DNA from: Squalus acanthias
Lineage: Eukaryota
Assembly (NCBI GenBank): GCA_030390025.1
Contig: CM059432.1
Location: 9,300,001 to 9,364,000, forward strand
Direction of reading: 5' to 3'
DNA length: 64,000 nt
The notes under the pieces were generated by a model. The model was given only the letters and a program-made list of their open reading frames with translations, was not told the origin of the DNA and ran no database searches. Position numbers and translations under genes: made by a program. Positions 4,733-6,705 of this stretch are shown here, one piece after another. Position 1 is the stretch's first letter. Every line of letters begins with the position of its first letter.

Positions 4733-4785
4733 ACAGAGCCGCAAACCTCGCTGAAAGTAATGTAATGTATTTTTCGAACTGAAAC

Positions 4786-4862
4786 TGAGTGGAATAGTGG
4801 ATGATGGCAGCCTTCTCACAGCCCACCCTGTTGCATGATCTTAGATCACAACTAATGTCGTC
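4786..4862 (+). ncRNA. Degenerate HDV-like (CPEB3-type) self-cleaving ribozyme fold, 77 nt, at the 5' end of an Ingi/Vingi retrotransposon
   Basis: P1 TGAGTGG 4786-92 / CCACCCT 4823-29 (5 of 7 pairs); P2 GATGGCA 4803-09 / TGTCGTC 4856-62; P3 GCC / AGC around L3 TTCTCAC; GT after P1'; P4 TGATC-TTA-GATCA; J4/2 ACTAA with the catalytic C at 4852. Confidence 0.65.
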
Positions 4863-5186
4863 TCACAGGACACCGAACTTGTCATTAAATCGACCTCGCG
4901 GTGACAGTAACAAACCAAGCAAATCGAACGGTCCTCTCCAGGACCAAAGAAAACAACATGTAGGCCCAACCATCCGAAAATGCCAACTGAACATCGAAGG
5001 CATTTCTCACTCAAAATGCAAATATCTCGAAAGGTTACTCAAGAAACGCAGCATCGATGTCCTGGTTCTTGAAGAAACCCACATCGAACACATCCACCAG
5101 TTCGACACAAGAGGACGTTTTGACCTAATCGCTTGCAATAACCATCCCAAATATGGTCTGGCGTGCGATGTCAGACAAAGCATCGA
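4786..5186 (+). mobile_element. Ingi/Vingi-like non-LTR retrotransposon, 5' end with start of the APE endonuclease
   Basis: ORF 4801-5238 contains GPTIRKCQLNIEGISHSK...IDVLVLEETH...HPKYGLA, APE motifs I/II of Ingi/Vingi type. It is truncated by another LINE at ~5187. Confidence 0.7.
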
Positions 5187-5401
5187 AGGGAACACCACCA
5201 CCTCCAAGTTCCCCTCCAAGTCACACACATCATCCTGACTTGGAAATATATCGGCCGTTCCTTCATCGTCGCTGGGTCAAAATCCTGGAACTCCCTCCCT
5301 AACAGCACTGTGGGAGTACCTTCACCACACGGACTGCAGCGGTTTAAGAAGGCAGCTCACCACCAGCTTCTCAAGGGCAACTAGGGATGGGCAATAAATA
5401 C
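5187..5401 (+). mobile_element. 3' end of CR1-group LINE whose tail is shared with LF-SINE
   Basis: gggaacaccaccacc...gggtcaaaatcctggaactccctccc...agggatgggcaataaat; same family as 45725-46357. Confidence 0.8.
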
Positions 5402-6705
5402 TACCCCATCTCCTTTTCCTTTTTTCTTCTCCTTCCTGAATATTGAATACCCCTGGATGTTGAATTCCCAGTCTTGGTCACCCTGGAGCCATGTCTCCGT
5501 AATCCCAATTATATCATATCCATTTACATCTATTTGCGCAGCTAATTCATCCACCTTATTACGAATGCTCCTCGCATTAAGACACAAAGCCTTCAGGCTT
5601 GATTTTTTAACACTCTTAGTCCTTTTAGAATTATTATTTACTGTGGCCCTGTTTGATTTACACCCTTGATTTCTCTGCCTTCCACTTTTGCTTTTCTCAT
5701 TCCTGTCTTTTGTTTCTATCCTTGATTCCCTTTCCTCTGTCTCCCTGAACAGGTTCTCAACCCCCTGCCATTTTAGTTTAAACCCTCCCCAACAGCACTA
5801 GCAAACACTCCCCCTGGGACATCGGTTCCAGTCCTGCCTAGGTGCAAACCGTCAGTTTGTACTGGTCCCACCTCCCCCAGAACTGGTTCCAAAGTCCCAG
5901 GAATTTGAATCCCTCCCCCTTGCATCATTCCTCTAGCCACGTATTCATCTGAAATATCCTTCTATTTCTACTCTGACTAGCACGTGGCACTGGTAGCAAT
6001 CCTGAGATTACTACCTTTGAGGTCCTATTTTTTAATTTACCTCCTAACTCCCTATATTCAGCTTTTAGGACCTCATCCCATTTTTTACCTATATCGTTGG
6101 TACCTATATGCACCACGACAACTGGCTGTTCACCCTCCCCCTCCAGAATGCCCTGCAGCCACCCCGAGACATCCTTGACCCTTGCACCAGGGAGGCAACA
6201 TACCATCCTGGAGTCTCGTTTGCGGCTGCAGAAACGCCTATCTATTCCCCTTACAATAGAATCCCCTATCACTATAGCTCTCCCGCTCTTTTTCCTCCCG
6301 TCCTGTGCAGCAGACCCACCCATGGTGCCAGGAAGTTGGCTGCTGCTGCCTTCCCCCGATAAGCCATCTCCCTCAACAATATCCAAAGTGGTATATCTGT
6401 TTGAAAGGGGGATGGCCACAGGGGACCCTTGCACTACCTGCCTGTGCCTACTACTCTGCCTGGTGGTCACCTATTCCCTTCCTGCCTGTGCTGCCTTTAC
6501 CTGCGGTGTGACCAACTCCCTAAACGTGCTATCCACGATTTCCTCAGCATCGCGAATGCTGCAGTATGTATACATTCGCAGTTCCAGCGCCGCAATGCGG
6601 TCTGTCAGTCGCTGCAGCTGGATACACTTCCCGCACACATAGTCGTCAGGGACACAGGAAGTGTCCCTGATTTCCCACATAGTGCAGGAGCAGCATGCCT
6701 TGAAC
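5402..6705 (-). mobile_element. CR1 LINE internal 5' part: ORF1 (zinc finger/leucine zipper + SGNH esterase) and start of ORF2 endonuclease
   Basis: 6471-6700 CCSCTMWE...YVCGKCIQLQRLTDRIAALE; 5925-6470 IVIGDSIVRG...CLPGARV...HIGTND; 5381-5587 CLNARSIRNK...IIGITETWL. Confidence 0.92.

Follow-up and report, generated by a model that had tools for sequence, protein, structure and literature searches.

Results

A decayed 5' fragment of a probable Vingi-type retrotransposon

We analyzed a window of 64,000 nt from Squalus acanthias (assembly GCA_030390025.1, contig CM059432.1, positions 9,300,001 to 9,364,000 of the forward strand). Window positions below refer to this whole stretch, and element nucleotides (nt) are counted from the first base of the family. 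Window 4794–5189 is, with good confidence, the degenerate 5' portion of a Vingi-type retrotransposon with an HDV/CPEB3-type head (Table 1). This copy retains element nt 4–405 at 4797–5189, with 26 substitutions and a 9-nt deletion relative to the family majority; positions 4794–4796 are not element-like, the first three G being missing. A fragment of an unrelated abundant repeat lies in place of the remainder of the element, and other copies of that repeat continue upstream with different sequence. The window is densely packed with LINE and SINE fragments, among them an ORF1 fragment of a CR1-type LINE with a GDSL-esterase (PF13472; 5925–6470, minus strand) and a 353-aa open reverse transcriptase (RT) frame of another LINE (PF00078; 9418–10479, minus strand).

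Table 1. Features of the window copy and its immediate surroundings (window positions).
Feature	Position	Strand	Basis or remark
Predicted HDV/CPEB3-type ribozyme head (69 nt, decayed here)	4794..4862	+	Family alignment, pair counts
P1 5' strand	4794..4800	+	Family has four G then TGG; G1 pairs with U
J1/2, 2 nt	4801..4802	+	1–3 nt in relatives
P2 5' strand	4803..4809	+	99% of cells paired across 30 copies
P3, 7-nt L3, P3'	4810..4822	+	
P1 3' strand and J1/4 GU	4823..4831	+	Single-pair P1.1 is C4815–G4830
P4 hairpin	4835..4849	+	7-nt insertion in 11/68 copies
J4/2 with predicted catalytic C4852	4850..4855	+	Placed by analogy
Likely start codon, overlapping J4/2 and P2'	4855..4857	+	Final in-frame AUG upstream of endonuclease
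P2 3' strand	4856..4862	+	Pair counts
Segment S (element nt 113–132), complementary to family 3' UTR	4906..4925	+	9+7 bp, 4-nt bulge
Start of APE endonuclease domain, truncated at element nt 405	4966..5189	+	
Host flank, outside the element (formerly taken as P1 5' strand)	4786..4793	.	Copy comparison
Unrelated abundant repeat fragment	5190..5402	+	7 other matches in window

Long copies of the family measure approximately 3.15 kb and carry a GAA tail. The majority frame of 10 long copies encodes approximately 1036 aa, with the Pfam domains Exo_endo_phos (APE endonuclease) and RVT_1 (RT) and a C-terminal CCHC-type knuckle recognized by eye. The predicted endonuclease frame downstream of the head is clear in other copies and weak in the window copy (Pfam E 0.19, or no match). 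RNase H gave no match in two C-terminal stretches of the family protein and was absent from the families listed for 77 homologs, mostly of approximately 1000 aa on contigs of 3.2–3.5 kb. According to the accessible part of a recent study (PMC13708176), the Vingi clade has a compact single ORF with APE endonuclease and RT and without RNase H, and the available portion of another source gives Vingi-2_Gav a length of 3128 nt (PMC5786205). The family is like Vingi-1_Acar and Vingi-2_Gav in its compact single ORF, its APE and RT domains, its lack of RNase H and its size of approximately 3.1 kb. Judged by domain content, size and the published descriptions of Vingi, the element is Vingi-type and not Ingi. 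Hence, of the original prediction of a fold at the 5' end of an Ingi/Vingi element, the fold and the Vingi type stand and Ingi falls, RNase H being absent. The best identity listed was 58%, and a PDB sequence search for the family protein returned no relative. When a second Vingi family was sought in the genome with a divergent protein, 12/12 fetched loci aligned to the same family. Exact target-site duplications (TSDs) of 7–12 bp ending at most 3 nt from G1 were present in 6/12 distinct two-ended copies, the sample left from 32 loci after 19 without one end and one duplicate.

Family copies begin with a run of G at position 4794

A genome search with window 4740–5236 gave 924 candidates, 40 of which were scored at 85–90% identity. 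Divergence from the majority was approximately 3–7% in most copies, and the family looks old. The element started within 3 nt of window 4797 in 38/39 other scored copies. Among 29 other copies, G was present in 20/29 at both 4794 and 4795 and in 26/29 at both 4796 and 4797. Selecting 30 copies, the query among them, on element nt 150–500 only, we found that 26 reached nt 1–5 and that upstream of the element no sequence was common to any of the 30. Copies do begin with a G, as had been proposed, at 4794 and not at 4786, and family likeness stops at 4794. The G-run before T5 comprised exactly four G in 30/68 copies and five in 2/68. A T occupied position -1 in 16/32 full-head copies and in most heads of relatives; this may reflect a target preference or untemplated addition. 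Contigs from four runs on four other organisms had loose ends at G1 and at the preceding base. Contigs from runs presumed to be RNA cover family copies, and are without information on ends, strand or level.

The family head is predicted to fold as an HDV-like ribozyme

In this register the family head has 69 nt, and its first G is the first base of the element. It consists of a 7-bp P1 (with G1–U), a 2-nt J1/2, a 7-bp P2, a 3-bp P3 with a 7-nt L3, a single-pair P1.1, P4 and J4/2. Family copies show the nested double-pseudoknot order P1, P1.1, P2, P3, P4 and the conserved core, that is, U...G in L3, C and A in J4/2 and G1 opening P1. Across 30 copies, 93.4% of 713 cells were paired, versus 28–47% for slid partners, and intact copies restore the pairing of P1 and P3. 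The J4/2 motif C-N-A-A was found in 6/6 representatives, the L3 G was retained in 46/61 copies, and our strict descriptor was passed by 7/30, 6/30 and 16/30 copies in three overlapping sets. Compensatory change was seen in 0 pairs among the 30 own-family copies, with shuffles scoring as high; this is expected under neutral decay from one master and adds no support for the stems.

Most parts of the fold had been placed correctly by the original prediction. P2 (4803–4809/4856–4862) is 7/7 paired with two G-U, P3 (4810–4812/4820–4822) is 2/3 paired, and L3 (4813–4819), P1' (4823–4829), GU (4830–4831) and P4 (4835–4849) lie where they had been put, as does C4852 in J4/2. The 5' side had to be revised. 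The proposed P1 5' strand at 4786–4792 is flank, with no base exceeding 41% there in 29 other copies, and the family register shortens the supposed 10-nt J1/2 to 2 nt and the supposed 77 nt to 69 nt from 4794. Consequently, this head is no counterpart by length of the trypanosome Pr77, and the earlier likeness in length was a coincidence.

The reading frame is open through the head. Because the 7-nt P4 insertion throws the first two AUGs out of frame, the AUG overlapping the 3' edge of the fold is left as the likely start. In three relatives an in-frame AUG lies 3–5 nt past the fold, and it is absent in four others examined. Ribozyme-aided initiation has been proposed for R2 and L1Tc, as far as the accessible sections of two papers go (PMC6765202, PMC3185411).

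Pairing in the window copy is reduced to 5/7 in P1 and 2/3 in P3, and both G1 and the L3 G are lost. The changes at 4818 (the L3 G) and 4820 (which breaks one P3 pair) are G>A, each in a CpG, in agreement with the CpG decay proposed earlier. This copy is in all likelihood inactive as a ribozyme, as had also been supposed, because G is missing from its first three positions and from L3, and one P3 pair is broken. The same L3 G>A change abolished cleavage in a wasp R2 ribozyme and did not fully silence HDV, according to the portion of the source available (PMC3774820). Rfam HDV/CPEB3 models, which had been suggested as a check of the head, gave no match in the window at E≤10 and none in three loci from this genome, two of which are good copies. 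Our descriptor, strict or relaxed, matched on neither strand of the window; other family copies pass its strict form. Single-strand folding, a method without pseudoknots, gave no significant result for the window copy, whichever register was used (z +0.9), or for two intact copies. A covariance model built from own copies placed the window-copy head at 4794–4863, the window copy itself being in the training set. The window copy alone is not above chance, and the case for a ribozyme head rests on the family.

Three related lineages have a matching predicted head

To represent relatives, we used 80 metagenome loci (656,568 nt) selected by protein alignment. The strict descriptor gave 7 matches in these 656,568 nt, all on the coding strand and upstream of the endonuclease, and 0 matches in 3.28 Mb of shuffles. 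In six well-anchored relatives the distance from the head to the first endonuclease motif was 96–149 nt, versus 125 in this family. The seven matches represent three lineages, which makes four Vingi-like lineages counting this family, and in the three others the fold recurs in that position with stems that differ. Double changes across the four lineages affected 7/7 positions of P2, 3/7 of P1 and 2/3 of P3; pairing in relatives is partly by construction, the descriptor having selected them. These counts were made on the descriptor elements because a MAFFT cross-lineage alignment, which we dropped, misaligned L056 and L064. The strict descriptor gave no match in 44/50 relatives with upstream sequence, of which many look decayed or truncated and one had a wrong anchor.

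The covariance model trained on own copies alone detected the heads of five relatives at E<0.01 among 50 sources and failed to detect those of L056 and L064; as a test independent of the descriptor, it partly confirms the changes seen across lineages. The head of relative L108 (3314–3395) matched the Rfam CPEB3 model with 25.6 bits and E 0.0074, the gathering score being 35. We also observed that the L3 of L108 is the same as that of CPEB3, that L056 has a CPEB3-type P3, and that in L094 (2949–3044) the P2' region is tandemly duplicated inside P4. Because Rfam models are lineage-specific, the missing Rfam match of our family makes it less probable that the head is of the CPEB3 or HDV family and leaves untouched the view that it works like them. 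As far as sequence can tell, the ribozyme head is a further member of the known class of LINE ribozymes, and, by analogy with that class, the family ribozyme very likely cleaves.

A segment behind the head is complementary to the 3' UTR

Read as its reverse complement, segment S matches the stretch of 3' UTR that immediately precedes the tail. In an all-against-all test of heads and tails, the cognate tail was the best-scoring partner of the head in this family (1/300 shuffles as good), in L069 (4/300) and in the L128/L126 family (0/300), with unrelated sequences. The non-cognate combination of L056 with L116 scored 28, as high as the own pair, and the own head of L126 failed to pair with its own tail (114/300 shuffles as good). 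By whole-region duplex energy, a blunt test, one of 139 other element windows gave a lower value. The exact 9+7 match is kept in only 4/9 long copies.

The head is recurrently captured up to the edge of this segment

Among copies selected on an intact core, many end near nt 130. We collected 83 exact matches to a head pattern, corresponding to 80 distinct copies that reach nt 4 by construction. In 31/80 of these head-picked copies the head is inverted, and its G1 abuts a truncated 3' part of the element. An end at nt 125–140 was found in 32/80, including 18/31 of the inverted copies; among the 44 newly fetched copies of this set, 10/17 inversions end there. A second small group of breakpoints lies at nt 160–170. 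Both flipped and head-only inserts end at the 3' edge of segment S. An independent sample, chosen with a 3'-end pattern (617 matches, the first 30 of them used), contained 5/30 inverted copies, three of which carry nt 1–132, 1–132 and 6–125. Ordinary internal inversions are also present. We had considered the copies of approximately 130 nt as one head-only subfamily and rejected this, most of them being inversions.

Outer TSDs of 7–13 bp were found in 13/19 inverted copies with the tail in view, and in 10 of these 13 the TSD overlaps the head by 2–6 nt. These copies thus bear the marks of twin-primed insertion (inverted 5' piece, outer TSD and microhomology); the window copy is not inverted. 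TSDs of at least 8 bp directly flank the head in 8/19 short non-inverted copies versus 8/342 control pairings. Copy L314 has ten A after nt ~131, and L223 (1501–1660) is a bipartite mini element of approximately 150 nt in which the terminal tail directly follows nt 1–131 and which has a 7-bp duplication. The 3' parts fused to flipped heads begin anywhere from nt ~1300 to ~3050, and this scatter indicates that the inserts are separate events, except for one duplicated pair. The pair consists of L309 and L311, two flipped-head insertions of identical sequence, both on contig C26, that probably arose by segmental duplication. Flipped heads were not seen among the relatives, a weak test in loci chosen on protein.

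Discussion

A proposed end-to-end paired RNA

We propose, with a probability of roughly 0.55, that Vingi RNA travels paired end to end: a ribozyme would set its 5' end, a helix would park the head, and both cut strands would prime on the same RNA, the stereotyped flipped-head, head-only and bipartite products being part of the same reading. The head would fold during transcription, and C4852 would promote cleavage 5' of G1, as in the L1Tc and R2 ribozymes. By the same analogy, cleavage would free the element RNA from a host read-through transcript and leave an uncapped end. Translation might then start at the AUG overlapping the 3' edge of the fold, a weaker step of the proposal. Nucleotides 113–132, whose complementarity to the 3' UTR is seen in the sequence, would close the RNA end to end and hold nt ~130 at the site of insertion. 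Priming at nt ~130 would be by the target strand that is cut second, or by the one cut first, and the reverse transcriptase would run off at G1. Given the complementarity and the breakpoints, we lean towards the view that the fixed breakpoint results from end pairing, which probably brings the head to where insertion takes place.

The breakpoint could also stem from a discrete head RNA of approximately 130 nt, cut, trimmed to the helix or ended early, that is then copied, an explanation we regard as quite possible. It accommodates the TSDs of head-only inserts, and the ten A of L314 and the direct tail join of L223 are what template jumping to a free 3' end predicts. It fits less well with the 2–6 nt overlaps between target and head in 10/13 inverted copies, which suit annealed internal priming, and with breakpoints spread over nt 125–140 and a second small group at 160–170. 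Rather unlikely is a local hot spot near nt ~130, or a self-copying subfamily, with the complementarity incidental. The weak points in the pairing tests and a C>T at nt 122 in 8/24 short versus 5/46 long copies speak for it. Against it, the 3' parts of flipped-head inserts start at scattered points, which argues for separate events, no variant is diagnostic of short copies, and the breakpoint coincides with the helix edge.

As to the 5' end itself, the head might be an internal promoter that sets it, with the HDV-like fold a relic that no longer cuts or with a dual role. In L1Tc, Pr77 acts as a promoter as well as a ribozyme, and certain heads of trypanosome SIDER elements stay uncleaved although they fold well, according to the accessible text of PMC4035085. 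An internal promoter would likewise yield a sharp 5' boundary, and covariation is absent inside the family. We nevertheless consider this improbable, the master retaining all five pairings and the core and the boundary coinciding with the predicted cleavage site. As in L1, an extra G at the 5' end is expected if a capped RNA is copied, and it was found in only 2/68 copies. The earlier register, a 77-nt Pr77 counterpart from 4786 with a 10-nt J1/2, can practically be discounted: 4786–4792 does pair 5/7 with P1', equal to the decayed true strand, and the flank does carry a GTGGA eight bases before that of the element, yet this stretch recurs in no other copy and is refuted as a family feature, a 5/7 partner occurs in 36% of 30-nt stretches drawn at random from the window (9% when Watson-Crick pairing is required at the inner four), and P3 and L3 of the window copy are broken anyway. 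The doubled GTGGA at 4788–4803, which spans the 5' junction and could reflect microhomology or a minor duplication at the junction, accounts for the false P1 strand.

Relation to known systems

The mammalian CPEB3 ribozyme is a conserved intronic single copy. It shares with the present head a 7-nt L3, GU after P1' and a short J1/2, but the family head does not match its model (Rfam RF00622). L1TcRz/Pr77 of L1Tc and ingi is a parallel in position, an HDV-like fold at the extreme 5' end of a dispersed LINE of the APE type, and also has a 3-bp P3, a single-pair P1.1, a +1 cleavage site (predicted here) and TSDs of approximately 12 bp, as described in the available parts of PMC3185411 and PMC4035085. 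The present head differs from it in its 69 nt and 2-nt J1/2, in an element without RNase H and in its animal host. R2 ribozymes have, by the accessible sections of PMC3774820, a P1 of 6–7 bp, a variable P4, a catalytic C (predicted here), a conserved L3 G and release from a co-transcript (again predicted here), whereas R2 is rDNA-specific, has a restriction-like endonuclease and has a J1/2 that ranges from tens to hundreds of nt.

Twin priming with 5' inversion in L1 is similar in the inverted 5' piece, the TSDs and the microhomology at the second priming site (PMC2912911, portion available). Among three LINEs tested, 5' inversions were seen almost only for L1, as far as the accessible part of PMC4245944 goes. 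Unlike in L1, over half of the head-bearing inversions here start near nt 130 and run to the first base of the RNA, and this start lies far from the stop of the first cDNA.

The available portion of PMC5786205 lists six ribozyme-bearing clades, and Vingi is not one of them. Full-text literature searches (including PMC3391268) returned, in the parts of the sources covered, no Vingi ribozyme, no Vingi 5'-3' pairing and no fixed head inversions; such a ribozyme could already be described in subscription papers, supplements, Repbase entries or Vingi-1 patents. End pairing and stereotyped head capture would set this family apart from known ribozyme-headed LINEs.

Implications

As a fossil, the window copy has little interest of its own. 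LINEs with ribozyme heads are already known, and a head on a vertebrate-type Vingi would add one clade to them. The Vingi clade is now in use for RNA-based gene insertion with native UTRs, according to the accessible part of PMC13708176, and self-cutting in the 5' UTR and pairing with the 3' UTR bear on the design of gene-insertion templates and on inverted by-products. From a fixed inversion point one can read in the genome how the RNA is held as it inserts; the point is also a second mapping of the RNA 5' end, and it offers a testable route to short ribozyme-headed elements. If the proposal is true, the end-paired RNA would amount to twin priming programmed by RNA structure, and it would be a means of spreading intact ribozymes, as well as miniature elements with ribozyme heads, across animal genomes.
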